Origin: a plasmid
Length of the DNA stretch: 43,223 nt
Reading direction: 5' to 3' (one strand)
Sequence record: NZ_CP125988.1
The stretch's first letter is position 1, and each line of letters starts with the position of its first letter. The position numbers and the translations under genes were made by a program. The notes under the pieces are model-generated. The model ran no database searches and had not been told where the DNA came from. It was given only the letters and a program-made list of their open reading frames with translations. This document shows, in pieces, positions 7,694-42,392 of the stretch.

Positions 7694-7804
7694 TTGAAAA
7701 GTGTTTATCAAAGTTATTTCCGTAAAATTTTTAGAGCTTTGAAGGCTCAAAATTTTATGGAATAACTTTGTTGGAATAGGTTCACAATATTTTAAAAGAT
7801 TTAC

Positions 7805-12014: not shown

Positions 12015-12475
12015 TATTGATTGAAATAATTAGTGTTTTGCCTTAAAATGTTCTCCGCTTCTTTATTCCCGAGCTTATATGATTTTACCAAATAGTCAAT
12101 TCCTTCTTGTGGTTTATCTTGATTGTGGTAAATCACAAATAACTGGTAATATGCTTGATTTAATTCGCTTATGCTTACAGAAATTTTTAAATCATCAATT
12201 GCTCCTTGCATATCATTGAGATAATATTTTGCTAATGACCTGTTGTAATAAATCATAGCATCTTGCTCTGCAATTTCAGCGTCATTAAAATTTACTCGAT
12301 TTGAAACATATTCCGAAATCAACTTGTTGAAAACTTCAAGCGATTTTTGGTGTTCGCCATTTTGAAGTAAAGAAGCAGCCATTAAAAATAATGCTGGTTC
12401 ACCTGTTAATTTTTCTTCTTTTTTTCTGTCAAATAATCCCATTTTGATTTGATTTAGTTTGTTATAATTACGCAC
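12014..12475 (-). CDS. TPR-like repeat protein (153 aa), first gene of the operon
   Basis: Helical-repeat signature '...AASLLQNGEHQKSLEVFNKLI...YYNRSLAKYYLNDMQGAIDDL...AYYQLFVIYHNQDKPQEGIDYL' resembles tetratricopeptide repeats. Confidence 0.5.
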   Translation of the reverse strand: MRNYNKLNQIKMGLFDRKKEEKLTGEPALFLMAASLLQNGEHQKSLEVFNKLISEYVSNRVNFNDAEIAEQDAMIYYNRSLAKYYLNDMQGAIDDLKISVSISELNQAYYQLFVIYHNQDKPQEGIDYLVKSYKLGNKEAENILRQNTNYFNQ

Positions 12476-12481
12476 AACGTT

Positions 12482-12662
12482 TTGGGTATTGCCGAAGGCG
12501 GGAAAATCGAAGCTGAAAGTTTCGATTTTGCACCGAGGTGAGCCAAAACGAATTTTTATGAGTTAAATTTACAAAACAAAAACGAATAAAATTCGTTTTT
12601 GGCGGAGATAGAAGTACAAACCTTGAATTTTGCACTTCAGCCCCGCTTTTGGCAATACCTTG
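12482..12662. repeat. Structured repeat B, homologous to repeat A and in the same orientation
   Basis: 'cgttttgg|gtattgccgaaggcggg|aaaatcgaagctgaaagtttcgattttgcac...ccaaaacgaattt...aaattcgtttttgg...gaattttgcac...|ccccgcttttggcaatacc'. The inner stem-loop doubles as a likely terminator for the convergent GmrSD gene on the minus strand. Confidence 0.7.
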
Positions 12663-22342: not shown

Positions 22343-22807
22343 TTATTTTTTCATTCTTTTATCTCTGATCAAAGCATCTACAACTCCCAGTATCACAACT
22401 TCGTCACTTTCATCAATTGTTACACTTTTTGCATAATCACTATTCAAAGCCACTAAGCGATTATTCGCTTTATCGTATCGTTTTAATGTATATTCGGAGC
22501 TATTAATAGAAACTACAATATCATCACCATCTATAGGATAATAGTCGGAACGTATAATGATAATATCGTTTTCTAAATATTCAGGATACATGGATAATCC
22601 TTTCACACGATTTACAAATGTACTTTCTACTTTAGACAGATATCGTTCGTCTAAACTGATCCGATCACTTAAAAAATCTTCTGCAGGAGAAGGAAATCCA
22701 GCACGAATTCCTCCACATACTTGAACATATTTTTTTTCTCCTTCTGCATGGATGGTTAGATTTTCTAATTCAGTTCCAAAATAAGGTGCTTTTTTAAATG
22801 TTATCAT
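22343..22807 (-). CDS. umuD: UmuD-like S24 peptidase (translesion polymerase accessory / LexA-like self-cleaving)
   Basis: '[15 protein letters not shown]' cleavage-site region, Ser motif 'GLSMYPEY', Lys 'TLKRY'. Overlaps umuC by 4 bp. Confidence 0.85.
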
Positions 22808-24057
22808 TGTATGGTAAGTATATCATTCCACTTTGTTGTATAGTTAGGACTTAATAAATCTTGTCTCATTTTCCATGTTTTATCTAATGCTTGAGAACCA
22901 ATTTTTAATTTTTTAACTCCATATTTAAAATTCATTTGATCCATAACATTCATTAATTTTCGATGCTTTGGATGTTCGTCTTCGAATAAATTGAATTGTT
23001 TTTCACTTTCGGGTGTTATTCCACCAACTATAACTCCTGCTTTTTTATAGGCATACCCTTTTTTATAAATAGCATCTAATCCAATTTTTGCATATTTAAT
23101 AATCTCAATAGATGAATTAGTAGGGAAGGGGATGGTTACATTGATTGATTGATAATACTGTGGCTTATTTTCTTGAAATCGATTCGTAAAAATAAAAACA
23201 GTTACAAGTTGACAATTGCTGTGCTGGTTTCGTAATTTTTCGGCACAAGTTGCAGCAAAAGTTGCAATGCGTTCCTGTAAATAGGTTTTATCTTCATACG
23301 TTTTATCAAAAGATCTTGTCGTAGCAATATTCTTTTTTGTTTTTACATCTTCAAGTTCCATAGCAGATATACCTTCTAACTCTTTTTTTAATCGTAAACC
23401 GACTACAGTAAATTCCTTTCGGACATATTCATCAGGAAGTAAAGTAAAATCTAATGCTTTATTTACTCCTTTTGCCTTTAATTTTTTAGCAAATTGTCTA
23501 CCAATACCCCATACATCTTCGATATCTAACCAGCGTAGTGCTTTAATTCGTTTTTCTTCTGAATCAATAGCATATACTCCTTCTAATTGCGGATATTTTT
23601 TAGCTATTCTATTGGCCACTTTAGTCAATGCTTTTGTGGGAGCAATTCCAATACACGTTGGAATTAAAGTGTTTTTAAGCACTTCTTTTCGTATCTCTTT
23701 TGCATATGATACTAAATTATAATTTTCATATCCCTTGAATTGTAAAAAGCTTTCATCTATCGAATAAACTTCTAAATCAGGAGTGTATTTTCTTAGTATT
23801 CGAGTTACACGGTTACTCATATCGCCATACAAAGCATAGTTTGATGAAAATACATTTACATTATTATCTTGAAATAACTTTTTGTATTCAAAAGCGGGTG
23901 CTCCCATGGGGATACCTAATGCTTTGGCTTCGTTAGAACGTGCAACAACACAGCCATCATTGTTGCTTAACACAACAATTGGCTTATGCCGTAATTGAGG
24001 ATTAAACACCCTTTCACAGCTTGCGTAAAAATTATTACAATCTACTAAAGCATACAT
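22804..24057 (-). CDS. umuC: Y-family DNA polymerase V catalytic subunit UmuC
   Basis: N-terminus '[49 protein letters not shown]' is canonical for UmuC/DinB-family polymerases. Confidence 0.9.
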
Positions 24058-26426: not shown

Positions 26427-26816
26427 ATGGAAACATTTATAGAAATAAATGGGGTAGAGGTTGAAATAACTAAAATCTACCAAATTAAAACTTATGATTC
26501 TTTAATTGAAGGAACAGCCAATAAAGAATTAAATGATGATATTTTAGTTGATATAAAACAACGTGCTAAACGTATTTTTTATCGAAGTTCTTATTATGTC
26601 ATGGATCCAAGAGAAAATCCGAATGATGATTTTCCTCAATATTGTATTATTTTAGAATTAATGGTTTTTAATACATTTCAAGATCCTGATAAAGATTATT
26701 CTGCTTTAACAGTAATTTGTTTTCAAGATGAGTTTGCATTTCCAATAAATGAAGAAAATTTAATTCATTTGAAGCAAATACCTTTTGGGTTATTGTGTAA
26801 TGAGTATAATTTTTAG
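26427..26816 (+). CDS. Hypothetical protein (129 aa)
   Basis: ORF only. Confidence 0.3.
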   Translation: METFIEINGVEVEITKIYQIKTYDSLIEGTANKELNDDILVDIKQRAKRIFYRSSYYVMDPRENPNDDFPQYCIILELMVFNTFQDPDKDYSALTVICFQDEFAFPINEENLIHLKQIPFGLLCNEYNF

Positions 26817-27810
26817 ACAGATGTCAACAAATAAAAATGCATTAATAAGATACAAGACACTTGATAAATGTTTAAGTAATAAATACAAAAGATATTATAT
26901 CAACGATTTAATTCAGGCATGTAATGATGTGTTGTATGAACATTATGGTGAAGAGGTTACAGTTTCTAGGCGTCAAATTTTCAATGATCTTGAATTCATG
27001 AAAAGTGATGCAGGATATGAAGCTCCTATTGTATCTGTTAGAGATGGAAGGAAAGTATATTATACATATGAAGATCTTAATTTTTCTATAGTACAAAAAC
27101 CTTTAACCAATGACGAATTGTCAATTTTAGAAAATACAATTGAATTATTGAGTCGGTTAAAAGGAATTCCTGGAATTGAGGGTATTGAATCTGTAGAAAC
27201 AAAATTAATGAATGTAAGTAATGAAAATTCAGTACAGAAAATCATCTCCTTTCAAGAAAATGAATTTTTAAAAGGTTTAGAATTTTTGACTCCATTATAT
27301 AATTATATAAAGAATTGTCAAGTTGTAAAACTTACTTACAAACCTTTTACACATACAAACTCTACGTCATATATTATAGCTCCATATTTTTTAAAACAAT
27401 ACAATAATCGTTGGTTTTTATTTGGGTGGAATTACGAATTAAATAAAATACAAAACATAGCATTAGATCGAATAGTAAAGTTGGAGTCAACAACTACTGA
27501 GTTGTATTGTAATTCTACTATAGATTTTGATGAATATTTTGAGGATATTATTGGTGTAACTAATTTTGAAAATAATGAAGTTTTAAAGGTAAAGATTCAG
27601 TTGTCTGATAGTATAATTCCTTATATTGAGTCAAAGCCGATACATGGTTCTCAAAAAATTATTGATAATATTTTACACTTATCAGTAAAATATAATTATG
27701 AATTAGAAAGTTTACTTCTTTCTTACGGTGAAAATATTAAAGTATTAGAACCTCATTTTTTAATTGATCGATTAAAGGAGAGAATCAATAATTTAAAAAA
27801 TATTTATTAA
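26785..27810 (+). CDS. WYL-domain transcriptional regulator (BrxR/CapW-like), probable start at 26818 (MSTNKN...)
   Basis: N-terminal wHTH 'VSRRQIFNDLEFMK'. WYL motif 'APYFLKQYNNRWFLFGWNYELNKIQNIALDRI'. Sits directly upstream of a defence operon, as BrxR-family regulators do. Confidence 0.7.
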   Translation: MGYCVMSIIFRQMSTNKNALIRYKTLDKCLSNKYKRYYINDLIQACNDVLYEHYGEEVTVSRRQIFNDLEFMKSDAGYEAPIVSVRDGRKVYYTYEDLNFSIVQKPLTNDELSILENTIELLSRLKGIPGIEGIESVETKLMNVSNENSVQKIISFQENEFLKGLEFLTPLYNYIKNCQVVKLTYKPFTHTNSTSYIIAPYFLKQYNNRWFLFGWNYELNKIQNIALDRIVKLESTTTELYCNSTIDFDEYFEDIIGVTNFENNEVLKVKIQLSDSIIPYIESKPIHGSQKIIDNILHLSVKYNYELESLLLSYGENIKVLEPHFLIDRLKERINNLKNIY

Positions 27811-27846
27811 TGCAGTATAATTGCACAGGTCGTCTGTATTTTTGTA

Positions 27847-30327
27847 GTGTTAATCTTTAATATTTGTTTTATGAGCGTTACAAAGACTACTTCAGAAGTT
27901 AATATGATCACAAGTAATTTATTACATGATATTAGAAAAATAATTTCATTAGATAATTATATCGTTTTAATTTATTTAGTTTCACTAAATAAGATTGGCG
28001 CTATTTCTATTTCTGAAACATTACCAAACGATGATATGAAGAAGAGCTTATTAGCTCAATTAAGAAATTCGGAGTTTATAAAGAATGTAAATCCTTTATT
28101 TATTGATGTTTTTCACACAGTTATTAATAAGCTATCTTATAATGAGTTAAATAGTCTGTTGTATGTTTTAAAAGACTTTTCTATTGATGATCATCTTTTA
28201 TCTGATTTCTTTGAAGATTTAATTTATAAAATATCTTTAAGCCAAGGTAGAATTGCTTCAGAATACTTACAACCTTTAGAATTAACTCATTTTATAAAGG
28301 GTTTGATTTCTAAAGATGAAGGTCAGAAGATTTATAATCCATTTGCTGGTATAGCTTCTTTTGGAGTTATTGCAAATGAAAAGGATAGCTATTATGGACA
28401 AGAATTAGTACCAACCTCATGGGGTATTGGGCTATTACGATTGATTATTAATGGAAAAGATCATCAAAACTATGTTTGTGATGATTCAGTTTCAAATTGG
28501 TTAGGCACTTCTCAAAAATTCGATGTAATTGTAGCTAACCCACCATTAAATGTTCGGCTAAATGAGAGAATTGAAGGGCTTAGATTTCTTGAAGATTTTT
28601 ATATAAGTAAAGGGTTAGATGCATTAGCAGATAATGGATATTTAATTTCTGTATCTTCTTTTACTTTACTTACTTCTACTATGTATCGACCTTTAATTCA
28701 AAAATTAGTAGATAATGATTATTTAGAAGCTATCGTTTCATTTCCTTCTAATATTTTATTGAATGCGAGCATTCCTTTTTATGTACTTATTCTAAACAAG
28801 AATAAGGCTGAAAAAGGAGTAGTTAAGTTTTTCGATGCCAAAGATTTTAGTATTAAGTCCAATAAAATTTTTAAAATTGACGATTCTAATTTATTAGAAG
28901 CATTTAAAAATTCTAAGGATAGGAATGTTGTTAGAAAAATTACGAATGAGCAAATTAAAGAAGAGGATTACAATTTACAAGTTGGTAGATATTTTATAGA
29001 TATTGATTTTAATTTAGGCCATCCATCTAAATTAGGTAATATACTTACACCTGTTTCTTTAGTAAATGATAGAAATATATCAAGATTCTATAAATTGAGT
29101 TTAAATAATCTTTCTGATAATATTTTGAAGAAAGATATTGATAACTCTACACTAGAAATTGTAAATGATCATGATGCTCCTAGATTTATGAATATTTTAG
29201 GTAGAAATGCTCTTATTATTTCTACCGTAAATAATATTAAAATTGGGTTTTTCAAATTTGATGGTACACCAGTGTTACTTCCAAGAGATTTTTATGCAGT
29301 AACTTTTGATGATGATTTAATTGATGCCAATTATTTAGTTTCCGTTTTATTATCTACAAATGTTCTGGAACAGTATAAAAAATATTCTAAAGGAAATGTA
29401 CTGAGTAGAATATCTAGAAATGATTTTTTTAAAATCATAGTTTCACTTCCTCCATTAGATACTCAGCATGCTATTTATTTAGATAATTTAAGAGATTATA
29501 TTGGTAAAAATGAAGAATTAAATCACCTTATTAAGGTTCAAAATTTATTAGACAGTAGCGATAGTAATAGTTTGTTAAGACATGAAATTGCTGGACCTCT
29601 AAGAAATATAAAATCTTCATTGAATTTTATACTAAGTATGATGGAGAAAAAAATCTCTTCAGATTTCCCAGAAGTGTTACATTTAACACCACATCCTGCT
29701 GTAGAAACAACGTTTAAAGAGTATTTAAATTTTATGAAAAGAGATTTAGATAGAATAAGTGTTTCCGTAAATAAAATGAGTGGAGAAATTGATTTTAGTC
29801 AAATGAAAATAGAAGAAATTGATTTGATTTCATTTATTCAAGATTATGTCAATTCTGTAAAGGTTCGTGCGAATAATAAATTTTCTATCGAATTGGATTT
29901 TAATGAAATTGAATTAAAATTAAATGGAATTGATCAGCTATTGATCAATGGCGATAAAAATTTGCTTTCCAATGTATTTGACAATTTAATTGAAAATGCT
30001 GAGAAGCATGCTTTTAGTTCTGAAGATTTTGAGGATAATAAAATCAAAATTGAATTGTTGTGCAGTTTTGAGGACAATACGGTTCAAATCGATATTTGTA
30101 ATACAGGAAAGCCTTTACCATCCGACTTAACGTACAATCAATTGGTAAGGAAAGGTGGTTCTTTCGGAATTAATAATGGCAGTGGGATAGGGATGTGGTA
30201 TGTTAGTGAAGTTCTTAAGAAGCATAAAGGATTTTTAGGGTTTACGGATGAAACGGGGCCTGAAGGTATTGATAGTGAATTTGTAACGTCTATTGAACTA
30301 ACACTTCCTGTAATTTTTAAAAAATAA
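27847..30327 (+). CDS. Fusion protein: HsdM-like N6-adenine MTase fold (degenerate motifs I and IV) + single HsdS-type TRD + histidine-kinase core (HisKA + HATPase_c); probable start at the second Met, 27871
   Basis: MTase block 'YGQELVPTSWGIGLLRLIING', 'FDVIVANPPLNV', 'YLEAIVSFPSNILLNASIPFYVLILNKNK'. TRD end 'IVSLPPLDTQHAIYLDNL'. H-box 'LRHEIAGPLRNI'. N/G1/G2 boxes 'NLIENAEKHAF', 'DICNTGKPLP', 'GSGIGMWYVSEVL'. TATTTTTG -7 box at 27837-27844. Confidence 0.8.
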   Translation: MLIFNICFMSVTKTTSEVNMITSNLLHDIRKIISLDNYIVLIYLVSLNKIGAISISETLPNDDMKKSLLAQLRNSEFIKNVNPLFIDVFHTVINKLSYNELNSLLYVLKDFSIDDHLLSDFFEDLIYKISLSQGRIASEYLQPLELTHFIKGLISKDEGQKIYNPFAGIASFGVIANEKDSYYGQELVPTSWGIGLLRLIINGKDHQNYVCDDSVSNWLGTSQKFDVIVANPPLNVRLNERIEGLRFLEDFYISKGLDALADNGYLISVSSFTLLTSTMYRPLIQKLVDNDYLEAIVSFPSNILLNASIPFYVLILNKNKAEKGVVKFFDAKDFSIKSNKIFKIDDSNLLEAFKNSKDRNVVRKITNEQIKEEDYNLQVGRYFIDIDFNLGHPSKLGNILTPVSLVNDRNISRFYKLSLNNLSDNILKKDIDNSTLEIVNDHDAPRFMNILGRNALIISTVNNIKIGFFKFDGTPVLLPRDFYAVTFDDDLIDANYLVSVLLSTNVLEQYKKYSKGNVLSRISRNDFFKIIVSLPPLDTQHAIYLDNLRDYIGKNEELNHLIKVQNLLDSSDSNSLLRHEIAGPLRNIKSSLNFILSMMEKKISSDFPEVLHLTPHPAVETTFKEYLNFMKRDLDRISVSVNKMSGEIDFSQMKIEEIDLISFIQDYVNSVKVRANNKFSIELDFNEIELKLNGIDQLLINGDKNLLSNVFDNLIENAEKHAFSSEDFEDNKIKIELLCSFEDNTVQIDICNTGKPLPSDLTYNQLVRKGGSFGINNGSGIGMWYVSEVLKKHKGFLGFTDETGPEGIDSEFVTSIELTLPVIFKK

Positions 30328-30331
30328 AGCG

Positions 30332-31498
30332 ATGATAAATGTACTTTGGATAGATGACGAGCATAAAGTTTTCCAGCCTCTTAAAGATGCTGCAATAATA
30401 GAAAATATTCAATTGGTTGGATATGACAATGCTGAAGATGGGTTATTAGAATTGACTAATAATTTCAATCATTATGATGCTGTTATTTTAGATGGAATTT
30501 TTTTTACAGATAAAACAAATAGTAAACAAACAGATGAAGCGTTTGGGAATGTTGCAAAAGGTTTACTTGAATTAAGAACAAAGGGATTTATAATACCTGT
30601 TTTTATTTATTCCGGTCAACCAAGTTTTGTGAAAGATAGTCATTCATATGTAAATTTATTTAAAGATGAATTTTCTGCAAATGGAAGGGTTTTCGATAAA
30701 ACGGATGATGATGGTATGCCTGAACTTTTACTGCATATTAAAGAAGCTGTAAAAGATAATGTTTATACTAAAATAAGACATCAGTATTCCGATGTATTCA
30801 AATACGTATCTTACATCCCTACTTTAGATAAGCATTATGGAAACTTTTTAGAACTTTTAAAAAATATTGATACCGATCAGGATTTGACGAAAGTTCGTAT
30901 GATTATAGAAAGTCTTTTCAAAGCTTTAGCTGATATTAATATCATTCCACAAGGATTTACGGAAGAAAAAGGTTGGATTAATGGAACCTCAAAGTTTTTA
31001 TCCTGCAACCACAAGGATTTTGATTTTTTAGCACCAGATTTCATTCATCCTACGATATGCGAAACTTTATACAGAGTTTTAAATATAGTACAAGATGGTT
31101 CACATAACGAAGGTAGCCTTAAATTGAAAGTAGATGATTATTCACGTAAATACACTTCTGGTTATCTTTACAAAAGTGTTGTTTATGGACTACTCGAAAT
31201 TTTGTGTTATTTTGGTGAATTAATAAAAAACAATCAAGACGTAGAAGAAAATCAATCCCGTTGGAAGAAAAAAAAGATTGTAAAAACAGAAGAAGTTTTT
31301 GTTGAAGCCATATTTCAATCGATAAACGAAGCTAATTGGGGAACAATTAAATGTATAGATGGAAAAGAAGTTTCAGTACATCCAAAATCGATTGAAACGC
31401 ATAATTTAGCAATTGGAGAAATAATTTGGGTTTCTTTGGAATTTAACGAACCAAAAAATAAATATCATATCAAAAACATTAAGAAGAATAATGGCTAA
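30332..31498 (+). CDS. Response regulator: N-terminal receiver (REC) domain + ~250-aa output domain of unknown type
   Basis: '[14 protein letters not shown]...[12 protein letters not shown]...[15 protein letters not shown]' (acidic pocket, phospho-Asp, S/T and K positions). Starts 4 bp after the kinase stop. Its stop overlaps hsdM. Confidence 0.65.
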
Positions 31499-33044
31499 AA
31501 AGAAAAAAGAAGAAGTTCAAGAAACCATCGAAAAAACCTTGTGGAAAGCAGCGGATAAGTTGCGTAAAAACATCAATGCAGCCGAATATAAAGATGTGGT
31601 TCTTGGCTTAATATTCTTAAAATATATATCCATTGCGTTTGAAAAATTGCATGCAGAATTAACCGCACAAATTGATCAAGGAGCTGATCCTGAAGACAGA
31701 GAAGAATATACTGCAGAAAATGTATTCTTCGTGCCACTATCGGCGCGTTGGTCGTTTTTACAAAGTTCAGCTAAACAAACGACGATCGGTAAAATTGTAG
31801 ACGATGGGATGGATGCTATTGAGGCGGAAAATCCGCAATTAAAAGGAATTTTACCTAAAGTATATGCTAAACAAAATTTGGATCCTACCAGCTTAGGAGA
31901 TTTGATCGACTTAATTGGTAATATCAACTTTGGCGATACCCAAGAGCGTTCTGCCGATGTATTAGGACACGTTTTCGAATATTTCTTAGGTCAGTTTGCT
32001 TTGGCTGAAGGTCAAAAAGGTGGACAGTTCTACACGCCACGTTCGGTAGTAGAGTTATTGGTCGAAATGCTAGAGCCTTACAAAGGTCGTGTATTCGATC
32101 CATGCTGTGGTTCGGGGGGGATGTTTGTGCAGTCGGAGAAATTCGTAACCGAGCGTCAAGGTCGTATTGATGATATCTCTATTTTCGGACAAGAATCCAA
32201 CCAAACCACTTGGCGTTTGGCAAAGATGAACTTAGCCATCCGTGGGATTGATTCTTCGCAAGTGAAATGGAATTCGGAAGGTTCGTTTTTGAACGATGCA
32301 CACAAAGATTTAAAAGCCGATTATATCATTGCCAATCCTCCGTTTAACGTGAGCGATTGGTCGGGCGATTTGTTGCGTAACGATGCGCGTTGGCAGTTTG
32401 GTACTCCTCCCGTAGGTAATGCCAACTTTGGTTGGTTGCAACATTTTATCCATCACTTGGCACCAACAGGGCAAGCGGGTGTAGTATTGGCAAAAGGAGC
32501 CTTAACGTCTAAAACTTCGGGTGAAGGAGAAATCCGTAAAAACTTGATCGAAGAAGGTTTGATTGATTGTATCGTGAACTTACCAGCAAAATTGTTCCTG
32601 AATACGCAAATTCCTGCCGCCTTATGGTTTATGCGCCGTAAGAAAGTACCGAATCCAAAATTTCGTAACACCGAAAACGAAATCTTGTTTATCGATGCGC
32701 GTAATTTAGGGCATTTGATCAACCGTAGAAACCGTGAGTTGAGCAAAGAGGATATCGACTTAATTGCTTCTACCTACCACAATTGGCGTAATTTAGATGG
32801 GCAATACGAAGATGTAGCAGGTTTCTGTGCTTCGGTGCCTGTATCTAAAGTAGCGGAGTTGGATTATGTACTAACGCCTGGACGATATGTAGGTTTACCT
32901 GATGAAGAAGACGATTTCAACTTTGTAGAACGTTTTACATCATTGAAAACCACTTTAGAAGAACAATTAGCCAAAGAAGCAGAACTGAATGCCATAATTG
33001 CGGATAACCTATTAAAAATTGAATTGCCGAAAGATGGAGAATAG
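31491..33044 (+). CDS. hsdM: Type I restriction-modification methyltransferase subunit HsdM
   Basis: '[17 protein letters not shown]', motif I '[12 protein letters not shown]', motif IV '[12 protein letters not shown]'. Noticeably higher GC than the flanking genes. Confidence 0.9.
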
Positions 33045-34293
33045 CTTATTTAAAAATTCAGAATTAGGTTTGATTCCTTTTAATTGGAATGAATATTCAG
33101 TTGAAAAATTAATTGAATTAGAATATATACATAAACCATTGGATGGAAATCATGGGTCTATTCACCCTAAAGGAAAAGACTTTATAGATTGTGGAATTCC
33201 TTTTATAATGGCATCGGATATAAATAATGGAAAAGTTAATTTAAAGCATTGTTCATTTATTAGTGAAGAACAAGCAAATTCATTACAAAAAGGTTTTTCT
33301 ATTGAAGGTGATGTATTACTGACTCATAAAGCTACTCTAGGGAGAACTGCAATTGTTCCGAAGATTTCAACTGATTTTATTATGCTTACACCACAAGTAA
33401 CATATTATAGAATTAAGAATAATGATTATTTAAATAATAAATATCTTAAATATTATTTTGATAGTCCTTCATTTCAGGGGATTTTAGAGAATCATGGTAG
33501 TAGCGGATCAACCAGAGCTTATATTGGAATTACGGCTCAAAGAGAGCTGCCAATCATTATTCCCCCACTTCCCGAGCAAAAAGCCATTGCATCGGTCTTG
33601 TCGAGTTTGGATGATAAAATCGACTTATTACACCAACAAAACCAAACCTTAGAGGCTTTGGCGGAAACCTTATACCTTAATTTCATTGGAGAAAGAGAAT
33701 TTAATAGTAAGCTAAGTAATATATTTTCTTTGCAGAATGGATATGCATTTAAAAGTAAATCATTCAAAGAGTCGGGTACTATTAGAGTAATTAAGATAAA
33801 AAATATTTCTGGAGATATAGTTGATATAACAAACTCCGATTTTGTTGATGATGAATCGATAAAAAAATTGGATACAAAGTTTAAAATCAATTCGGGCGAT
33901 ATATTAATAGCTATGACAGGAGCTGAAGTAGGTAAATTAGGTATTGTACCTGAGACAGAACAAAGCTTGTGGTTAAATCAGCGAGTAGGATTATTAAAAG
34001 AAAAATTTGAAGGTGCAAAGTATTTAGCATATCTACATTTAAAATCTGATTTCGGTCAAGATTATATTGAAAATACAGCGACTGGAAGCGCTCAACCAAA
34101 TATATCAGGAGAAGGAATTGAGAATTGTGAATTTCCTTTCTACGAAGAAACAGAGTTAAGGGAAATTTGTAATAAACTTTCTCCACTTTATGATAAAGTG
34201 ATATTTAATTTAGGTCAAATCCAAACCCTAACTAAACTTCGCGATACCTTATTGCCTAAGTTAATGAGTGGCGAGGTGAGGGTTCAGCTATAA
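33019..34293 (+). CDS. hsdS: Type I RM specificity subunit HsdS (two TRDs)
   Basis: Central conserved '[43 protein letters not shown]' and C-terminal '[17 protein letters not shown]' repeats flank two AT-rich variable TRDs. Confidence 0.85.
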
Positions 34294-34372
34294 AAATAAA
34301 TAAGGGAGCTGTTGCCAATGCAGCTCCTTAAAGCTATTAACCAAAGCTAAGAATAACCCAAAAACATAATTT

Positions 34373-35986
34373 ATGGCTAAAGTATTACGTAGCAACGAGC
34401 ATATTGCACCTTATCTAAGCGAACGTTTGGCCTACATTCGTGGGCTAGATCCGCTAGGCTTACAAAATAATTCAGAAGCTACTTTTGCAATGCTTTTGCC
34501 TGGGCTTAATAATGTAACAGGTAGGCTTAGGTATTATAGTTTTTATTGTTGGTTGTTAGATCAATACAGTGTACACATCGGAAGTACCAATCCTAAAGAC
34601 CAAGAAGCATTTATTCGTAAAGCGGAGTTGCTATTAGCCTTGGTCATGGTACAATCTGGTACCGAATTTAATAATATACCCGGAAGTAATTTTGCTTCCA
34701 ACTACTTGCAAGAATCAACCGAAATCATAGATTTAGCTTCGGGAATTTATACAGAAGATCATAAAACAGCCACTACCTATTGGAAATATGCTACAGGTGC
34801 ATTTGGTCAGTATTATGTAGCTTCTTTAATCAATATAGGTATAGTAAGTAGTCGTGCCGATGAAGCCAAACTATACAGTCGTACCAATACCTTAGAAGAT
34901 GCAATTTTTGTAAGTGGTGAACAATTGGCTAAAACTTTTGATGTGAATATTGATCCATCGCACAAAAGCATCTTTTTAGAAGCTGTGCTATCTGCTCAAG
35001 TTTCTAAAAGTGATCTTGCGCCACTCTTTGAATCGTTCAATATGATGGAAATTCCATTAGATACCCAAGAGCATCAATTATTATTGCAGTTATTATTGCA
35101 AAGTGATCGTATGCCTTTGGATGCCGAAGAAGTACCCTTTCATAGAAAAAACACCTTTCGAGCATTACTATATTTTATACATCAGCAACCTGTAGAAAAG
35201 CCGACATTGGCTTTTGTACAAAATAATTATCATCGTGTCATTACAGAGGGGTTACCAACCAATGAAACACTTTTCGGTTGGTATTATTACCAAGTAAATG
35301 ATTGGTTTCAATTTGCAAATACAGCCTTATTTAATGGTTTGTTGCAAGAATTAACAACTGAATATGGTCTGAATTACGCTGACCTAACCACTTTTTGCGA
35401 TGTAATGAGTGGTAAAGTATTAGCAGAACTAATGGACACCTATGAAATCGAAGAGGCAGTAAGCTTACAAGATTTCATTTCTCAAATGGAAAGCTTCGTT
35501 ATAGATGAAGTGGAATTGAGTGATAATATATTGCGTTACGAAGGACTGGATAGAATCGTTTACGGTTTTGAATTATTAATCGCTTTATTTATCAATAATC
35601 AAGAGCATTTAGAAGCTATAGATACATTTGGTCATCGTCATGGAATTAAAAGAGATGGTGAGGCGAGTGCGTACTATTTAAAAAAGCTTACTCATAAATT
35701 ATCCTTATCGTTTAAAGATTTCATATATGAATATTTAGTGCAAAATATTGTATTACGACATCATTTTGTGGCTTTCAGGAAAATGGGAGGTGGTTCACAA
35801 AGTACTCAAAAATTTGTATTAGAAGAAGGACATATCCGTTACTTAGGAAATTTTGAGCCTTCGTTTACAGGACCTCGATTAACCACACTACATGCCTTTC
35901 TTAAAGATTTAAAATTGGTAGAACAACATAATATTACTGCCAAAGGAATTGCTGTTTTAAACGATGAAGCATTATGGCAAAAATAG
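34373..35986 (+). CDS. Hypothetical protein (537 aa) inserted between hsdS and hsdR; translationally coupled to the downstream PLD gene
   Basis: Long ORF with codon usage and GC similar to hsdM/hsdR. Its stop overlaps the ATG at 35974. No motif recognised. Confidence 0.55.
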   Translation: MAKVLRSNEHIAPYLSERLAYIRGLDPLGLQNNSEATFAMLLPGLNNVTGRLRYYSFYCWLLDQYSVHIGSTNPKDQEAFIRKAELLLALVMVQSGTEFNNIPGSNFASNYLQESTEIIDLASGIYTEDHKTATTYWKYATGAFGQYYVASLINIGIVSSRADEAKLYSRTNTLEDAIFVSGEQLAKTFDVNIDPSHKSIFLEAVLSAQVSKSDLAPLFESFNMMEIPLDTQEHQLLLQLLLQSDRMPLDAEEVPFHRKNTFRALLYFIHQQPVEKPTLAFVQNNYHRVITEGLPTNETLFGWYYYQVNDWFQFANTALFNGLLQELTTEYGLNYADLTTFCDVMSGKVLAELMDTYEIEEAVSLQDFISQMESFVIDEVELSDNILRYEGLDRIVYGFELLIALFINNQEHLEAIDTFGHRHGIKRDGEASAYYLKKLTHKLSLSFKDFIYEYLVQNIVLRHHFVAFRKMGGGSQSTQKFVLEEGHIRYLGNFEPSFTGPRLTTLHAFLKDLKLVEQHNITAKGIAVLNDEALWQK

Positions 35987-38490
35987 AGCGTAGAAATGTT
36001 ATAGAACTCATAGGTAACAATACCAAGAGATATCACTCTTGTATTATTACTTGTTTTACATTCGATTTTACCTATTTTGAAGAACGTATTGCACCTATTT
36101 TAAGAGCTGCAAACATTAGAAACATCAATATTTTTGTGGATGGAAATGAATTGATAAAAGCGCAAGAGTTTTTATCAGGTAAAGAATTCTCTTTTCAGAA
36201 AAATTATAATCTTATCGGCGTACATTCAGCACATGGTGTTTTTCATCCTAAAATCATTTATTTGTTTGGACAAGATGAAGGATTATTAACTATTGGTTCA
36301 GGCAATATTACATCATCGGGTTTAAGTTACAATGACGAAGTGTGGTCTTCCTTTCATCACCGAAATTTAGAATCAAGCTATCTTCATTTATTTAGAGCGG
36401 CTTGGTTGTACATAAATCAATTTTTCCAATACGCTTTGGGTGTTGCAAAAGTAAAATTAGATTGGATTCCAACAAATACCCCTTGGTTGGAGGAATTAGT
36501 AAAGAGCCCTAGTTTTGAAGTAAATGATATACAATTTGTTTCAGAAAGTTCTTTAGCTTTTTTAATCAACGAATTACGTTCGAAAAAAATAGAGAAGATG
36601 GTGGTTATTTCACCATATTATGATAAAAGTGGTAAAACTATTGAATTACTTCAACAGCATTTACAACCTCAAAAAGTAGATGTTATTGTAGATCAACATT
36701 CCACTTTATTACCAACCGATATTTTCGAATCTGACCACTGTCATTTTCATTTTTGGGCTGATGTCGTAGAGTCATATGATGAAGAAATCAATCGTCTTCA
36801 TGCCAAAATCTTTTATTTTTCTACAGAAGAATCAGAGTATATGCTCATGGGAAGTGCTAATGCAACTTATGCTGCAATGGGTGATTTGACAAACGTCAAT
36901 AGCAATACAGAAGCTGGTTTATTTTTAAGACGACCAAAACAAACAACGAATTGGTTGAAGGAATTGGGAATCCAAATTCCTAAAAAAGGTATAGCTACTT
37001 CAGAACTTGCAGAAATTTCAAAAATAAATAGGCCTGTAAATCATAAGATAATCTATGAATATCAAATACTTTATGCAGAAAATACGAATGAAAATATAAG
37101 TCTTTATCTTGATAAAATAATCAATCAAGAAGTTTCATTTCAGATCGAAGATCGAGATGGAACTATTTGTAGTGTTCAAGCTATAAAGTATTATGAAAAT
37201 AGAATTGAATTATTTTTAGACCATACATCAGAAGCATTCAAAATTTGCATTTGTCAAGAAGGCAAAAGAGTTTCTAATTATGCAGTGATTCATCAAGTTG
37301 AACAACTTCTAAAAACCAATCCTAATCAAATCAATGCTGATTTAGATATTTTATTAGGAAAAGATAATCTTCAAAATTTTGACTGGTATCATATCATAAA
37401 GTTTGTGGATTTGTCTTGGGTGGATGATGAAAATGAAGTGGCAAATAAAGGGGAATCTACAGCATTTGATAAACGAGAAACTCCAATTTTGGAAACAACT
37501 TCTTATGAAAACCTAAGTTATGAAGATTTTAATACGAATGCCGTTTATCATAAATTATCCAATAGTTCGAATCCTAATATACGCATCACCGATTTTTTCA
37601 TCACCTTATCTAAAGGACTAGACATAACCCATTATGAAGAATCAGAAGAAATTAGATTAGAAATAGAGGGCGAGGCTGATAAAGGAAAATCCGATAAAGT
37701 AGCAACTAATGAAGTAAATATAAGTTGTACTGTTGGTAGGAAGATAAAAAAAGAAGTATCTAATTTTTTAGTGAAATTATATGAATTTCTAGATAATAAA
37801 ATAGATAATGCTTTTCCTGAGAATCCTAAAGAACCTTTAAAACTGGATCAATTACCTAGTGAAACGTATACCATTACAAATTTAAGTAAGGTTATCATTG
37901 CATTAGAATTACTAGGCAAATATTTAGATAGCTTCTATGAGGAAGAAAATGGAAGTAAGATAAAATTTGTAAAAAATGGACCAATTGAAGAAGTAGATAC
38001 AGCAATTGGATTTGTTACGAATACCATAGGACTATTTTATATCGCCTTCAACAAAGGAACTTATATATATGATTATGAATTTCACAACAAAAAACTAAAG
38101 AATTATAAGATACATTTTGTCAACCTGTTATTTTCCTTCGTAGATAAAATTAATTGGCGTAAAAATGAAATATATGCTAAATTGTTACGATTAAATACCA
38201 TTCGTTTTTCAGAATTAACTCCTTTGGAATTATCTGAAATTAGGGAAATGAATCAAGAAGATATCAATAACTATTTTCAATGGAAAGAGCATTTTGATGA
38301 TTTAGAAAAAAGGAGAAAACATTTAATTATAGACGTTAATCAAAGTCTTATTGGGAAAATTATTTTTAATAGTAAATTAGGCTTTTGTTATGTGTCTCAT
38401 GTCAATAACAACTATGAATTAGATATACACACTTTAATTGGAAATATAAAAATTAAGTTGACCAAATGTGTAGTATTTAATTCATTGTAA
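35974..38490 (+). CDS. Phospholipase-D-family nuclease with two HKD motifs (N-terminal ~320 aa) and a ~500-aa C-terminal extension of unknown function
   Basis: HKD-1 'HGVFHPKIIYLFGQDEGLLTIGSGNITSSG'. HKD-2 'LHAKIFYFSTEESEYMLMGSANATYAA'. Confidence 0.75.
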   Translation: MAKIERRNVIELIGNNTKRYHSCIITCFTFDFTYFEERIAPILRAANIRNINIFVDGNELIKAQEFLSGKEFSFQKNYNLIGVHSAHGVFHPKIIYLFGQDEGLLTIGSGNITSSGLSYNDEVWSSFHHRNLESSYLHLFRAAWLYINQFFQYALGVAKVKLDWIPTNTPWLEELVKSPSFEVNDIQFVSESSLAFLINELRSKKIEKMVVISPYYDKSGKTIELLQQHLQPQKVDVIVDQHSTLLPTDIFESDHCHFHFWADVVESYDEEINRLHAKIFYFSTEESEYMLMGSANATYAAMGDLTNVNSNTEAGLFLRRPKQTTNWLKELGIQIPKKGIATSELAEISKINRPVNHKIIYEYQILYAENTNENISLYLDKIINQEVSFQIEDRDGTICSVQAIKYYENRIELFLDHTSEAFKICICQEGKRVSNYAVIHQVEQLLKTNPNQINADLDILLGKDNLQNFDWYHIIKFVDLSWVDDENEVANKGESTAFDKRETPILETTSYENLSYEDFNTNAVYHKLSNSSNPNIRITDFFITLSKGLDITHYEESEEIRLEIEGEADKGKSDKVATNEVNISCTVGRKIKKEVSNFLVKLYEFLDNKIDNAFPENPKEPLKLDQLPSETYTITNLSKVIIALELLGKYLDSFYEEENGSKIKFVKNGPIEEVDTAIGFVTNTIGLFYIAFNKGTYIYDYEFHNKKLKNYKIHFVNLLFSFVDKINWRKNEIYAKLLRLNTIRFSELTPLELSEIREMNQEDINNYFQWKEHFDDLEKRRKHLIIDVNQSLIGKIIFNSKLGFCYVSHVNNNYELDIHTLIGNIKIKLTKCVVFNSL

Positions 38491-38509: not shown

Positions 38510-41500
38510 ATGACCGAAAACGAAATTGAACAACTCGCTATAGCCTTATTAGAGCATCAAGGATATACTTATATCAACGGGGTTCATTTAGCTCCTGATG
38601 CAGGAGATCTAGAAAGAACATCATTTGAAGAAGTGGTGTTAAAACAACGATTGGAAAATGCAGTTCGCCGTATCAATCCTAATATTCCTTTAGATGCACA
38701 ACAAGATGCTGTAAAGCAAATTTTGCGTATTGCTTCGCCTGATGTGTTATCCAATAACGAAACCTTTCACCGATTACTAACAGAAGGAATTCCGGTCACC
38801 AAACGGGTAAATGGGCAAGAACGTGGAGATCGTGTTTTTTTAATTGATTTTGAAAATCCATTACATAATGAATTTTTAGTAGTCAATCAATTCACAATCG
38901 TAGAAAACGGAGTAAATAAAAGACCAGACATTATTCTTTTTGTAAATGGTTTACCATTGGTTGTGATAGAATTAAAGAACGCCACTGATGATAAAACCAC
39001 CATTCAGTCAGCCTTCCGCCAAATAGAAACCTATAAAGCAATGATTTCTTCATTGTTTACTTTCAATGCTTTTTCCGTTATTTCTGATGGATTAGAAGCA
39101 AAAGCAGGAACTATTTCAGCAGGTTTGAGTCGTTTTATGGCTTGGAAAACCACAGATGGTATTTCAGAAGCTTCTAAACAAATCAGCCAATTAGAAACAT
39201 TGATTAAAGGTATGTTACAACCAACCGTATTATTGGATTTGGTTAGACATTTTGTGGTTTTTGAAAAATTTAGAAAAGAAGACGCTGAAGGTATTGTTAC
39301 CGTTCAAACAGTAAAGAAATTAGCAGCGTATCACCAATATTATGCCGTAAATCGTGCGGTAGAATCAACCAAAAGAGCTTCTGGTTTTATCTCAAAACAA
39401 ACATTAGGGAATTTATTAAATGAATCTCCTGAAAGCTATGGTTTACCAGGTGTTAAAAATCAACCCGAAGGCGACCGTAAAGGTGGTGTAGTTTGGCATA
39501 CACAAGGTTCGGGTAAATCCTTGTCTATGGTGTTTTATACAGGTAAAATTGTGTTAGCCTTAGATAATCCAACGGTTTTAGTGATAACAGACCGTAATGA
39601 TTTGGACGATCAATTATTTGATACGTTTGCTGCTTCTAAACAATTATTGCGTCAAGATCCTGTTCAAGCAACCGATCGCAAACAGTTAAAAGACCTATTG
39701 AAGGTAAATTCAGGAGGCGTAATTTTTACAACGATACAAAAATTTCAACCGGAAGAAGGAAATGTTTTTGAAACCTTATCTGCCAGAGAAAATATCATTG
39801 TCATAGCAGACGAGGCACACCGTACACAGTATGGTTTTAGTGCAAAAACGGTTGATGATAAGGATGAGAACGGTAATGTAATTGGTAAAAAAATCGTGTA
39901 TGGATTTGCCAAATATATGCGTGATGCTTTACCAAATGCTACCTATTTAGGTTTTACAGGAACACCTATAGAAAGTACAGACGTTAATACACCAGCAGTA
40001 TTCGGTAATTATGTCGATATCTATGACATTGCGCAAGCTGTAGAAGATGGTGCAACGGTTCGTATTTTCTATGAAAGCCGATTGGCGAAGGTAAAATTAA
40101 CCGAAGAAGGAAAGGAATTAGTAGATGAGCTGGATGATGAATTGGATCAAGAAGATTTAACATCCACTCAAAAAGCCAAAAGTAAATGGACTCAGTTAGA
40201 AGCCTTGATTGGCGGGAAACAACGTGTCCAAAATATTGCTGCTGATATTGTCGGTCATTTTACGCAACGTCAGGAAGTGTTTCAAGGGAAAGGAATGATC
40301 GTGTCGATGAGTCGTCGTATTGCGGCGGATTTGTATAATGCGATAGTTGCTATTAAACCCGAATGGCATTCGGATGATTTGAAGAAAGGAAAGATTAAAG
40401 TCATTATGACTTCTGCATCTTCGGATGGTCCTGAATTAGCTAAATTCCACACGACCAAAGAGCAACGTAGAATGTTAGCCGAACGTATGAAAGATCCGAA
40501 TGATGAATTAGAATTGGTGATTGTCCGTGATATGTGGTTAACAGGTTTTGATGCTCCTAGTATGCATACCTTGTACATCGATAAACCTATGAAAGGGCAT
40601 AACTTGATGCAAGCGATTGCTCGTGTTAACCGTGTGTATAAAGATAAACCCGGAGGATTAATCGTTGATTATTTAGGGATTGCTTCTGACTTGAAAAAGG
40701 CTCTTGCTTTTTATTCAGATGCAGGTGGAAAAGGTGATCCAGCAGTAGCACAAGAACAGGCAGTAACTTTGATGTTAGAAAAAATTGAAGTGATTTCGGC
40801 CATGTATCATGGTTTCCCTTATGAAGATTATTTTGATGCCGATACATCTAAAAAACTGTCCATGATTTTAGCAGCCGAAGATCATATTTTAGGCCTAGAG
40901 GATGGCAAGAAAAGATACATTAATGAAGTAACCGCTTTATCAAAAGCATTTGCTATTGCTATACCGCATGATCAAGCAATGGATGCTAAAGATGAAATTT
41001 CATTCTTCCAAGCCGTTAAAGCAAGGTTAGCAAAGTTTGATACTACAGGATCGGGCAAAACAGATGAAGAGATTGAAACAACCATTCGACAAGTGATTGA
41101 TCAAGCTTTGGTTTCTGATCAAGTGATTGATGTTTTCGATGCAGCAGGTATTAAGAAACCTGATATTTCTATATTATCCGATGAGTTTTTAATGGAATTG
41201 AAAGATATGCAACATAAAAATGTGGCGTTGGAAGTCTTGAAAAAACTATTGAATGATGAAATAAAATCCCGATCAAAATCCAATTTAGTACAAAGTAAAA
41301 AGTTATTGGAAATGTTGGAGCAGTCAATAAATCGCTACCACAATAAGATTCTAACAGCAGCTGAAGTTATTGATGAATTAATTCATTTAAGTAAAGATAT
41401 TGTTGAAATGGATAATGAGCCTAAAAAGTTAGGATTAACAGAATATGAATATGCTTTTTATACCGCAGTTTCTAATAATGATAGTGCTAAGGAATTAATT

Positions 41501-41719
41501 CAACAAGATCGATTAAGAGAATTAGCTGTAGAATTAACGACTACTATTCAGCAAAATGCAAGTATCGATTGGAATATCAAAGAAAGTGTACGAGCAAAAT
41601 TAAAAGTGGCTGTAAAACGATTATTGCGTAAATATGGATATCCACCAGATATGCAGTTATTGGCAACAGAAACGGTATTAAAACAAGCAGAGATGTTGGC
41701 TAATGAGTTGACCAAGTAA
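38510..41719 (+). CDS. hsdR: Type I restriction enzyme R subunit HsdR (SF2 helicase/translocase + nuclease)
   Basis: Typical HsdR N-terminus. Walker A 'WHTQGSGKSLSMVF'. DEAH box 'IVIADEAHRTQYG'. 1069 aa. Confidence 0.9.
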   Translation: MTENEIEQLAIALLEHQGYTYINGVHLAPDAGDLERTSFEEVVLKQRLENAVRRINPNIPLDAQQDAVKQILRIASPDVLSNNETFHRLLTEGIPVTKRVNGQERGDRVFLIDFENPLHNEFLVVNQFTIVENGVNKRPDIILFVNGLPLVVIELKNATDDKTTIQSAFRQIETYKAMISSLFTFNAFSVISDGLEAKAGTISAGLSRFMAWKTTDGISEASKQISQLETLIKGMLQPTVLLDLVRHFVVFEKFRKEDAEGIVTVQTVKKLAAYHQYYAVNRAVESTKRASGFISKQTLGNLLNESPESYGLPGVKNQPEGDRKGGVVWHTQGSGKSLSMVFYTGKIVLALDNPTVLVITDRNDLDDQLFDTFAASKQLLRQDPVQATDRKQLKDLLKVNSGGVIFTTIQKFQPEEGNVFETLSARENIIVIADEAHRTQYGFSAKTVDDKDENGNVIGKKIVYGFAKYMRDALPNATYLGFTGTPIESTDVNTPAVFGNYVDIYDIAQAVEDGATVRIFYESRLAKVKLTEEGKELVDELDDELDQEDLTSTQKAKSKWTQLEALIGGKQRVQNIAADIVGHFTQRQEVFQGKGMIVSMSRRIAADLYNAIVAIKPEWHSDDLKKGKIKVIMTSASSDGPELAKFHTTKEQRRMLAERMKDPNDELELVIVRDMWLTGFDAPSMHTLYIDKPMKGHNLMQAIARVNRVYKDKPGGLIVDYLGIASDLKKALAFYSDAGGKGDPAVAQEQAVTLMLEKIEVISAMYHGFPYEDYFDADTSKKLSMILAAEDHILGLEDGKKRYINEVTALSKAFAIAIPHDQAMDAKDEISFFQAVKARLAKFDTTGSGKTDEEIETTIRQVIDQALVSDQVIDVFDAAGIKKPDISILSDEFLMELKDMQHKNVALEVLKKLLNDEIKSRSKSNLVQSKKLLEMLEQSINRYHNKILTAAEVIDELIHLSKDIVEMDNEPKKLGLTEYEYAFYTAVSNNDSAKELIQQDRLRELAVELTTTIQQNASIDWNIKESVRAKLKVAVKRLLRKYGYPPDMQLLATETVLKQAEMLANELTK

Positions 41720-41729: not shown

Positions 41730-42308
41730 ATGAAGGATATTGATTTATTAATAAAAAATTTTTTTAAAAAGAAAGAATTTGATTCGGATGAATTAAGTAT
41801 GTTAAAGCAAAATATTATTGACAGATTAGGCTATAAATATTATAAACCTTATGAGTCAATAATAAACCTTCATTTATTAAAATTTATTGTTAAAGCTAAT
41901 AAGCCTGAAAAAAATTTACACCCTAAAAAATTAAATACTCTAGAACAGAACATATTTGAACAAGAGCATATTAAAGAAATTTTAAAAAATAAATATAAAG
42001 ATAAAAAAGTATTTGAAATAGCGAATTTATTAGAGATACCACCAAAATATATTATTTCTTTTTATAAAAAAGTAAGTATTGACGTAGACGAAGTAACAAT
42101 AATTAATGATTCTCTATTTGATATAATTTATTTTTATATTAACAAAAGAGAATCAGTTCTTAAATCTAAAAGGACAAGAGAAAGAATTGAAACTAAACCT
42201 CTAAATCCTTATAAAAAAGATAAAAAATCGCTTAGTTCAAATACAGTATATGATAAATTATTACATACTAAAACTTCAGTAAAATTGATTTATATACGAT
42301 CCAAATAG
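41730..42308 (+). CDS. Hypothetical Lys-rich protein (192 aa)
   Basis: ORF 10 bp after hsdR. A convergent bidirectional terminator follows it. Low-complexity composition. Confidence 0.3.
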   Translation: MKDIDLLIKNFFKKKEFDSDELSMLKQNIIDRLGYKYYKPYESIINLHLLKFIVKANKPEKNLHPKKLNTLEQNIFEQEHIKEILKNKYKDKKVFEIANLLEIPPKYIISFYKKVSIDVDEVTIINDSLFDIIYFYINKRESVLKSKRTRERIETKPLNPYKKDKKSLSSNTVYDKLLHTKTSVKLIYIRSK

Positions 42309-42357
42309 TTCATAAAATATTCACTTTCCTTTTCGGACTTTATATCAACCAAAAAAA

Positions 42358-42392
42358 CAAAAATGCTTTCCAAACTGGAAAGCATTTTTATT
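42358..42392. terminator. Bidirectional Rho-independent terminator 'aaatgctttccaaactggaaagcattt'
   Basis: Perfect 11-bp stem with a 5-nt loop. A-run upstream and T-run downstream. Lies between convergent ORFs. Confidence 0.65.

Follow-up and report, generated by a model that had tools for sequence, protein, structure and literature searches.

The DNA of 43,223 nucleotides (sequence record NZ_CP125988.1) analysed here is a complete Myroides odoratimimus plasmid, and this whole stretch at its full length is referred to as the window. The question raised by its type I restriction-modification (R-M) operon is what two additional genes, designated A and B, are doing between hsdS and hsdR. A and B were judged to be, with fair probability, an autonomous two-gene nuclease cassette, which would very probably act in defence against phages or other mobile genetic elements (MGEs) and which is carried as cargo of a variable hsdS-hsdR slot. 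Two readings of the pair had been offered in a preliminary description of the locus. The first, an embedded two-gene defence or nuclease module, is favoured by the obligate pairing of A and B, by their occurrence in defence islands and on mobile elements and by the invariant catalytic His/Lys residues of B. The second, a new accessory of the restriction complex, is possible yet disfavoured by the 11 of 30 loci without type I genes, by the polyphyly of the embedded arrangement and by the intact PD...ELK nuclease motif of HsdR. The A/B family is uncharacterised and unnamed and lies outside Pfam and NCBIfam save for a generic phospholipase D (PLD) domain; neither its components nor the way they are placed in genomes is of a kind not met before.

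Gene organization of the locus

The two open reading frames (ORFs) between hsdS and hsdR have exactly the coordinates and lengths claimed for them in the preliminary description, and the hsd genes were confirmed by Pfam, PADLOC and NCBIfam. The features are as follows.

31491..33044, + strand: hsdM, type I methyltransferase subunit, the upstream conserved flank (Pfam N6_Mtase, E 5.1e-104, and HsdM_N, E 1.4e-26; PADLOC MTase_I, E 2.7e-193)
33019..34293, + strand: hsdS, specificity subunit, its 3' end being the left edge of the cargo slot (Pfam Methylase_S in two stretches; PADLOC Specificity_I, E 9.8e-90)
34373..35986, + strand: gene A, 537 aa, ATG start (ORF call)
34487..34702, + strand: region of A matching ZacA, aa 39-110, which holds the top-conserved motif GLNNVTGRxRYYSFYCW (PADLOC, ZacA profile positions 45-114 of 396)
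35974..38490, + strand: gene B, 838 aa, ATG start (ORF call)
36244..36306, + strand: first H-x-K...G-S-x-N motif of B, with H91, K93, S109 and N111 (aa 91-113, 'HPKIIYLF...GSGNIT'; HPKIIYLFGQDEGLLTIGSGN), invariant in 105 homologues
36799..36861, + strand: second H-x-K...G-S-x-N motif of B, with H276, K278, S294 and N296 (aa 276-298, 'HAKIFYFS...GSANAT'; HAKIFYFSTEESEYMLMGSAN), invariant in 105 homologues
38510..41719, + strand: hsdR, type I restriction/translocase subunit, its 5' end being the right edge of the cargo slot (Pfam HSDR_N, SWI2_SNF2, T1R_D3-like and T1RH-like_C; PADLOC REase_I, 1263 bits; NCBIfam TIGR00348, E 2.4e-176)

The overlap noted earlier between the stop codon of A and the ATG of B is present and amounts to 13 nt, not to a 4-nt ATGA, the ATG of B lying 13 nt inside the 3' end of A (ttATGgcaaaaaTAG). 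Likewise, hsdR follows directly downstream of B, at a spacing of 19 nt rather than 20 bp. The products of A and B are labelled by NCBI as 'hypothetical protein' (WP_131541130.1) and 'phospholipase D-like domain-containing protein' (WP_131541131.1), respectively. Both were regarded as genuine genes because each has hundreds of full-length homologues together with a confident structure prediction.

Protein B carries a PLD/Tdp1-like active site

The two PLD motifs quoted for B beforehand are both present, and the catalytic His and Lys residues are kept on careful alignment, H91/K93 and H276/K278 being invariant in the 105 homologues. The classical PLD motif is HxKxxxxD, with Asp; since this Asp is absent from both motifs of B, they are of the Tdp1-like 'HKN' type. 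The sole Pfam match of B is PLDc_2 (E 5.1e-13), and the second motif falls inside the stretch aa 199-331 that is matched by Pfam PLDc_2 and PADLOC ZacB. An AlphaFold2 model of B (mean predicted local distance difference test score (pLDDT) 80.8) was divided into a two-lobed N-terminal module of ~345 residues (aa 1-~345, the tandem PLD/Tdp1-like catalytic module), a beta-domain (~360-445), a disordered linker (483-580), a helical domain (585-785) and a small C-terminal beta-domain; for the C-terminal ~500 residues no informative match was obtained. With two HxK(...)N motifs, one active site and a two-lobed fold, B belongs to the PLD superfamily and carries an intact two-lobed PLD/Tdp1-like active site. 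No Walker A motif was found in its sequence.

Among known proteins of this fold, Tdp1 is 13% identical to B, with a profile-to-sequence E of about 0.1; B is set apart from it by an additional long C-terminal half, by the obligate partner gene and by its defence-island context. BfiI, NgoAVII, SauUSI, the END nucleases and DrmC act as dimers of chains that each bear one HKD motif, whereas both lobes of B are in a single chain, as in Tdp1 and PLD3/4. B further differs from the PLD-family restriction nucleases in having no B3, EVE, iEndoIII or helicase domain and in needing the separate partner A. As for DISARM, B scored 19.1 bits against a cut-off of 133 for NCBIfam DISARM_DrmC_I and E 0.0039 against PADLOC DrmC, and the DISARM partners DrmA and DrmB were not found in the window.

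Protein A is mainly helical

Protein A was modelled with a pLDDT of 88.4 and a predicted template modelling score of 0.86 as a mainly helical protein with winged-helix-like modules. Nothing significant was found for it in Pfam, NCBIfam or a profile search of PDB sequences, and the Foldseek search of the PDB with the model gave noise only (transporter matches at a TM score of about 0.1). In PADLOC, a weak but reproducible match to ZacA was obtained (see below). Some members of the A family match winged helix-turn-helix models of Pfam. Judged by the model, A has a new overall architecture containing winged-helix-like modules, and it would be a DNA-binding or sensor subunit. Ten residues (G44, L45, N47, T49, R53, Y58, W60, F80, R82 and E85) are invariant in 121 sequences. 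The A family comprises 1,507 clusters at 50% identity with E<=1e-3, or 372 with E<=1e-30; no relatives of A, as a sign of phage carriage, were found in IMG/VR with the patterns used. A and B represent a large family without functional annotation, which occurs in Bacteroidota and a proteobacterial sister family, often on plasmids or integrative and conjugative elements (ICEs), including those of the opportunist Myroides odoratimimus.

Distribution and neighbourhood of the A/B pair

A neighbourhood census of the pair, as had been proposed, was run by scanning one genome per GTDB species and yielded 43 loci, nearly all from Bacteroidota; the pairing was constant, the placement relative to type I genes variable and the embedded state polyphyletic. 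B follows A at once in every locus with downstream sequence, the junctions ranging from a 17-nt overlap to a 12-nt gap, and A and B are an obligate, translationally coupled pair. Clustering of the neighbours in the 43 loci gave no conserved third gene, no other cluster being found in more than 16 loci, and the sole recurrent neighbours were HsdM, HsdS and HsdR.

For the type I neighbourhood, 30 non-redundant loci with usable flanks were counted within about 10 kb. Type I genes are near A/B in 19 of them and absent from 11, so the pair is not always encoded with hsdR, hsdM and hsdS as an obligate subunit would be. A/B lies between hsdS and hsdR in seven census loci (L001, L002, L004, L009, L013, L020 and L043), and the HsdR control sample described below added one more such operon (L062); in the other type I arrangements the pair is upstream of hsdM, downstream of hsdR or divergent. 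At least two HsdR families are represented among the type I systems beside the pair, at 57-98% and about 31% identity, respectively. On the neighbour-joining tree of A the embedded loci are scattered, that is, polyphyletic, with no co-inheritance with one type I lineage.

Pairs that are not embedded have as neighbours Cas9, SspC, MkoA, DpdF-like and GajB-like helicases, a SauUSI-like enzyme, STAND/TIR proteins and HipBA. The proteobacterial family, A', is a full-length homologue of the Bacteroidota A (hhalign probability 100%, E 9e-73), and A'-B' pairs either stand alone on plasmids or ICEs or come after a type I operon or, once, after an SNF2 gene (Sphingobium p1). A partnership with SNF2 was rejected, the gene being absent from three other loci of the same subfamily.

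These neighbourhoods bear on a non-immune role of the pair, namely Tdp1-like processing of DNA ends or adducts or maintenance of mobile elements, for example by resolving covalent relaxase-, topoisomerase- or transposase-DNA intermediates or by acting as a plasmid-stabilising addiction module. The HKN-type motifs without Asp, the PF06087 assignment precomputed on about 20 homologues and the location of pairs on plasmids or ICEs beside relaxase or Tra genes (the window, pPNAP03 and L130) would fit such a role. However, the neighbours are mostly defence genes and not transfer genes, neighbour clustering gave no conserved link with any relaxase family, the profile match to the Tdp1 sequence reaches an E of only about 0.1, and it is with defence proteins, those of Azaca, that A and B share specific sequence similarity. 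Moreover, A and B are 42% and 35% identical, respectively, where the flanking HsdR is 78-81% identical, a fast evolution typical of conflict genes. The non-immune role was rated the least probable of the readings considered here.

As separate observations, A/B repeatedly adjoins DNA-modification-based systems other than type I: in L037 (9665-15954) the Ssp phosphorothioation gene SspC (PADLOC E = 0) is located about 1.6 kb downstream of B, and in L016 a DpdF-like helicase gene starts 53 nt after B.

The hsdS-hsdR cargo slot

As a control, 80 metagenome loci (L047-L126) with HsdR 62-96% identical to that of the window were collected, of which 53 have hsdS visible upstream. Only eight of these 53 have hsdS directly abutting hsdR; the other 45 (85%) hold 0.66-7.6 kb of inserted genes, which fall into about 80 protein clusters, A/B being present in one (L062). 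The two extra genes had been presented in the preliminary description as a departure from the usual type I locus, which is not borne out by these related operons. The sampled cargo includes Abi_C, Schlafen/AlbA_2, DUF4917, RhuM, a helix-turn-helix protein with an M78 peptidase, DUF3800, a NACHT/STAND NTPase, a DEAD helicase and an AAA_13 ATPase. Because other cargo is packed against hsdR as tightly as B is, the tight spacing belongs to the slot and not to A/B. Identity of HsdM and HsdR is 70-81% across these operons and 62-81% across phyla (71-80% for HsdM in related operons), while that of A and B is 42% and 35%, respectively, and the cargo is almost never the same; the slot thus has conserved flanks and fast-evolving cargo. 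A/B is placed as embedded cargo would be, between hsd genes, co-oriented with them and in a slot that holds alternative defence genes. A replacement of a defective HsdR nuclease by A/B was ruled out, as the PD...ELK motif of HsdR is intact and is invariant in embedded and control operons.

Three loci retain scars of cargo exchange. In L004 (Myroides sp. C6-3), hsdS and A are separated by an additional cargo gene of 415 aa and, after it, a chimeric mini-ORF (9770-9901; MTENEIE...NTLLPKLMNGEERVKKK...), in which the first 7 hsdR codons and the 5' leader (aaccaaccATGACCGAAAACGAAATTGAA) are joined to the C-terminal end of hsdS (...NTLLPKLMNGEERV); after the mini-ORF come the same spacer as in the window and then A. 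In L062 (7977-9225), the order downstream of B is a truncated 5' fragment of hsdR of about 112 codons (62% identity to HsdR of the window), an ORF for a 283-aa cargo protein and, only thereafter, the intact hsdR (9366-12596); this is a second, independent stacking scar. In L013, hsdR downstream of B is reduced to a remnant of 74 aa, and a GH127 glycosidase gene comes next. Such scars point to cassettes as the units in which cargo moves, with the 3' end of hsdS and the 5' end of hsdR as their borders; presumably the highly conserved hsdM/hsdS-3' and hsdR-5' flanks allowed homologous recombination to swap and stack them. Taken together, the control census and the scars present type I operons as exchange platforms for defence cargo, in which the conserved hsdM/hsdS-3' and hsdR-5' sequences appear to act as homology arms that swap and stack it.

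Discovery of defence genes by their embedding in type I R-M operons has already been published by Payne et al. (bioRxiv 10.1101/2024.01.29.577857). Like PrrC, RloC and the PDC candidates of that study (10.1101/2024.01.29.577857), A/B is embedded, co-oriented and located in a slot with many alternatives; none of the PDC, HEC and PrrC models of PADLOC-DB 2.0 is matched by it. TgvAB, a type IV system of two genes housed in a V. cholerae type I operon, needs both of its genes, is independent of HsdR and has been proposed to complement R-M by hitting modified phages (PMC11411939). Its likeness to A/B, a two-gene nuclease system embedded in a type I operon, is an analogy of organisation and not homology: TgvAB is GmrSD-like (DUF262/DUF1524, HNH-type), whereas A and B have no such domains and B is PLD/Tdp1-like. 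Neither DUF262 (GmrSD_N) nor DUF1524 (GmrSD_C) was matched by A or B in Pfam.

The content of the slot also bears on an abortive-infection or toxin function, by which a non-specific nuclease B would be restrained by A and released on infection to kill the cell. The two-gene, translationally coupled architecture is consistent with such a function, as are the Abi_C, AAA_13/RloC-like and STAND genes found in the same slot and the precedent of PrrC, the classic type I-embedded abortive-infection gene. Against it, A is large (537 aa), highly conserved and rich in winged helices, unlike a small antitoxin, and Azaca cleaves phage T4 DNA preferentially (bioRxiv 10.1101/2025.07.10.664194). This function was regarded as improbable, and, together with the repair or maintenance role, it is a minor alternative to a defence nuclease cassette.

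As an observation on the same HsdR subfamily (T1RH-like_C type), many of its operons also carry additional genes in the space from hsdM to hsdS, such as DUF1016 and RhuM in L001.

Relation to Azaca

The Azaca system was reportedly described by Millman et al. in 2022. It consists of ZacA (DUF6361), the PLD nuclease ZacB and the superfamily 2 (SF2) helicase ZacC, which form the ZacABC nuclease complex; cleavage of DNA by this complex in vitro needs all three proteins together with the Walker A motif of ZacC, and T4 DNA is preferred (bioRxiv 10.1101/2025.07.10.664194). Protein A matches PADLOC ZacA over aa 39-110 only (E 6.6e-4), below the family thresholds, and the match recurs in 16 of the 20 close homologues and in 48 of the 73 divergent ones (best E 2.2e-8). 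Pfam DUF6361 matches one of the 73 A-family members (E 3.5e-4) and not A of the window. Protein B matches PADLOC ZacB in the second lobe only (aa 200-331, E 1.6e-15), the generic PLDc_2 model giving a similar value (E 5.1e-13). ZacA and ZacB are the sole PADLOC families that are matched meaningfully by A and B, respectively, and the pair is not without relatives. A bridge to DUF6361 through the proteobacterial sister family was also sought; the search with the Sphingobium A' gave 59 proteins, none with PF19888, and it yielded no such bridge.

Shared between Azaca and A/B are the first two components in the same order, that is, a protein that weakly matches the ZacA model in its conserved N-terminal motif region, followed by a PLD-fold nuclease that matches ZacB. 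A has 537 aa against a ZacA model of 396 positions, with about 70 residues aligned; B has 838 aa against a ZacB model of 586 positions, with the second lobe aligned and a C-terminal region of ~500 aa unique to B. The A/B family is below the Pfam DUF6361 thresholds and is found mainly in Bacteroidota, with the full-length proteobacterial sister family. B has the catalytic HxK of a ZacB-type PLD nuclease, only its second lobe being alignable. The third component was looked for in the census, and no ZacC helicase with A/B and no conserved third cluster was found in any of the 43 loci; the helicases that adjoin A/B in single loci match REase_I, DpdF, GajB, MkoA and SspC and never ZacC. As ZacC is missing, A/B does not belong to Azaca as defined, and by sequence comparison it appears best described as a distant, helicase-less relative.

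The requirement of Azaca cleavage for the ZacC SF2 ATPase leads to the main rival explanation, in which A/B is an accessory of a motor: a helicase-less ZacAB-like core would borrow an SF2 translocase, with HsdR taking the place of ZacC in the embedded operons and another helicase doing so elsewhere, and the type I complex would gain a second PLD-type nuclease or a new target range. In line with this, hsdR comes directly after B in 8 loci (4-13-nt overlaps or 19-136-nt gaps); the type I genes within 10 kb of the pair in 19 of 30 loci (63%) are position-flexible and co-directional, and such genes are also near distant relatives (Prevotella pE2-28 and L132). Elsewhere the pair is abutted by helicases, namely SF2 in L017, SNF2 in Sphingobium p1, DEAD/DpdF-like in L016 and UvrD-like in L005. 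However, type I genes are lacking near the pair in 11 of the 30 loci, convergent or housekeeping genes and no helicase flank several pairs (L015, L026, L036 and L131), and the helicases that do adjoin a pair come from unrelated families, placed by PADLOC in other systems. Further points against a motor accessory are the polyphyly of the embedded arrangement, the roughly 80 unrelated clusters of cargo that are packed just as tightly on hsdR in this slot, the nuclease motif that HsdR itself retains and the independence of the analogous TgvAB from HsdR (PMC11411939). Such an accessory role was considered unlikely.

Quite unlikely, too, is a broader form of this idea, that the ZacA/ZacB-like pair is a portable nuclease head for varied SF2 translocases (ZacC, HsdR, SNF2 and others). 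If it were true, a second nuclease, of PLD/Tdp1 type and guided by the winged-helix protein A, would be delivered by the type I motor of the embedded operons or would license that motor. The result would be a hybrid restriction enzyme whose cleavage chemistry or target range, for example modified or protein-capped DNA, is not available to classical type I enzymes.

A single locus, L017, was seen with a helicase coupled to the pair as tightly as a ZacC would be. There, the gene of a 977-aa SF2 helicase (7061-9994; ResIII/DEAD/Helicase_C) ends 1 nt before A, and the best PADLOC matches of its product are REase_I, PbeA and type IV mREase (about 1e-11).

Proposed function of the A/B cassette

For the preferred reading, an autonomous two-gene nuclease cassette, the following course of action is proposed. 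A would bind B and supply DNA recognition or sensing, by analogy with the winged-helix arrays in type IIS recognition domains and in BrxA, and B would cleave DNA through a phospho-histidine intermediate and without ATP. The pair would be co-transcribed with hsdMSR and broaden the coverage of the operon, possibly through an attack on DNA that type I restriction misses, for instance that of modified phages, which is what has been reported of Azaca in vitro and of the analogous TgvAB. By analogy with TgvAB, and since Azaca prefers T4 DNA, a role complementary to type I restriction is plausible, and a modification-dependent attack by A/B is a possibility. If the pair is an autonomous nuclease, an Azaca-type PLD core can work without a helicase, and A/B is a compact two-gene defence module.

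Several points weigh against the autonomy or the defence function of the cassette. The similarity of A to ZacA is weak (~70 of 537 residues, E 6.6e-4), and the match of B to ZacB is confined to the second PLD lobe with an E near that of the generic PLDc_2 model. Since Azaca cleavage needs the ZacC ATPase, a pair without a helicase may be no autonomous nuclease. The association with type I genes (63%), in several positions and nearly always co-directional, is stronger than expected from one insertion hot spot alone and may be a sign of functional dependence; being both frequent and flexible in position, it raises the question of synergy or dependence. The physical interaction of A with B and the binding of DNA by A are presumptive. 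None of the 145 PDC models of PADLOC-DB 2.0 matches A/B, and no experimental report of defence by the family was found in the literature.

Other features of the window

The remaining features of the hsd array, and those obtained from the annotation scan of the plasmid, are given below.

34303..34329, + strand: hairpin in the 79-nt hsdS-A spacer, with a 10-bp stem (34303-34312/34320-34329) and a 7-nt loop (folding)
41730..42308, + strand: 192-aa ORF, the last gene of the array, 10 nt past hsdR (no match in Pfam, PADLOC or NCBIfam)
42356..42392, no strand assigned: terminator-like palindromic hairpin of 17 pairs with A and T runs on its sides (terminator scan)
335-1486: DUF5712 relaxase
1501-3042: TraG/TraD-type (type IV) coupling protein
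3909-5456, - strand: Mu-like transposase
8925-10022: IS91 transposase
12685-14370, - strand: GmrSD-family type IV restriction enzyme (GmrSD_N and GmrSD_C)
15644-16669: ArdC anti-restriction protein
22804-24057, - strand: UmuC
26785 (start) to 27810 (end), + strand: WYL/WCX regulator of the upstream methylase module
27847-30327, + strand: 826-aa fusion of an N6-adenine methyltransferase, a type I-like target recognition domain and a C-terminal histidine-kinase-type HATPase_c
30332-31498, + strand: 388-aa protein without family, its end overlapping the start of hsdM

The hairpin between hsdS and A that had been noted before is present and steadier than shuffled sequence: the minimum free energy of the spacer is -18.2 kcal/mol (z = -3.5), and 0 of 200 shuffles were equally stable. 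It has no T-run and was not called by the terminator scan. In the closest relative, Myroides sp. C6-3 (L004), it is degenerate, its arms not being complementary, and in other embedded loci the distance from hsdS to A is only about 5 nt. A function of this stable hairpin as a terminator or a cassette signal was rejected because it has no T-run and is not conserved. The hairpin at 42356..42392 is likely the end of the long co-directional gene array or operon, and the L004 counterpart of the 192-aa ORF (41730..42308) is 98% identical over the 86 aa available.

With a relaxase, a coupling protein, transposases, GmrSD and ArdC, the plasmid is a mobile element with several defence and counter-defence genes, and it is conjugative or mobilisable. 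Through the GmrSD gene at 12685-14370 it already possesses, in addition to its type I system and A/B, a nuclease that is modification-dependent. The plasmid itself is absent from the PLSDB copy searched, as judged by a DNA search, in which a short hsdR segment was the sole near-identical match.

Directly upstream of hsdM and on the same strand lies a second methylase module (window 26785-31498, +). Its trio of genes, for the WYL/WCX regulator, the 826-aa fusion and the 388-aa protein, is kept in Myroides sp. C6-3 (L004), and the metagenome locus L111 has a weaker HsdM-like and 388-aa-like pair ahead of hsdM.

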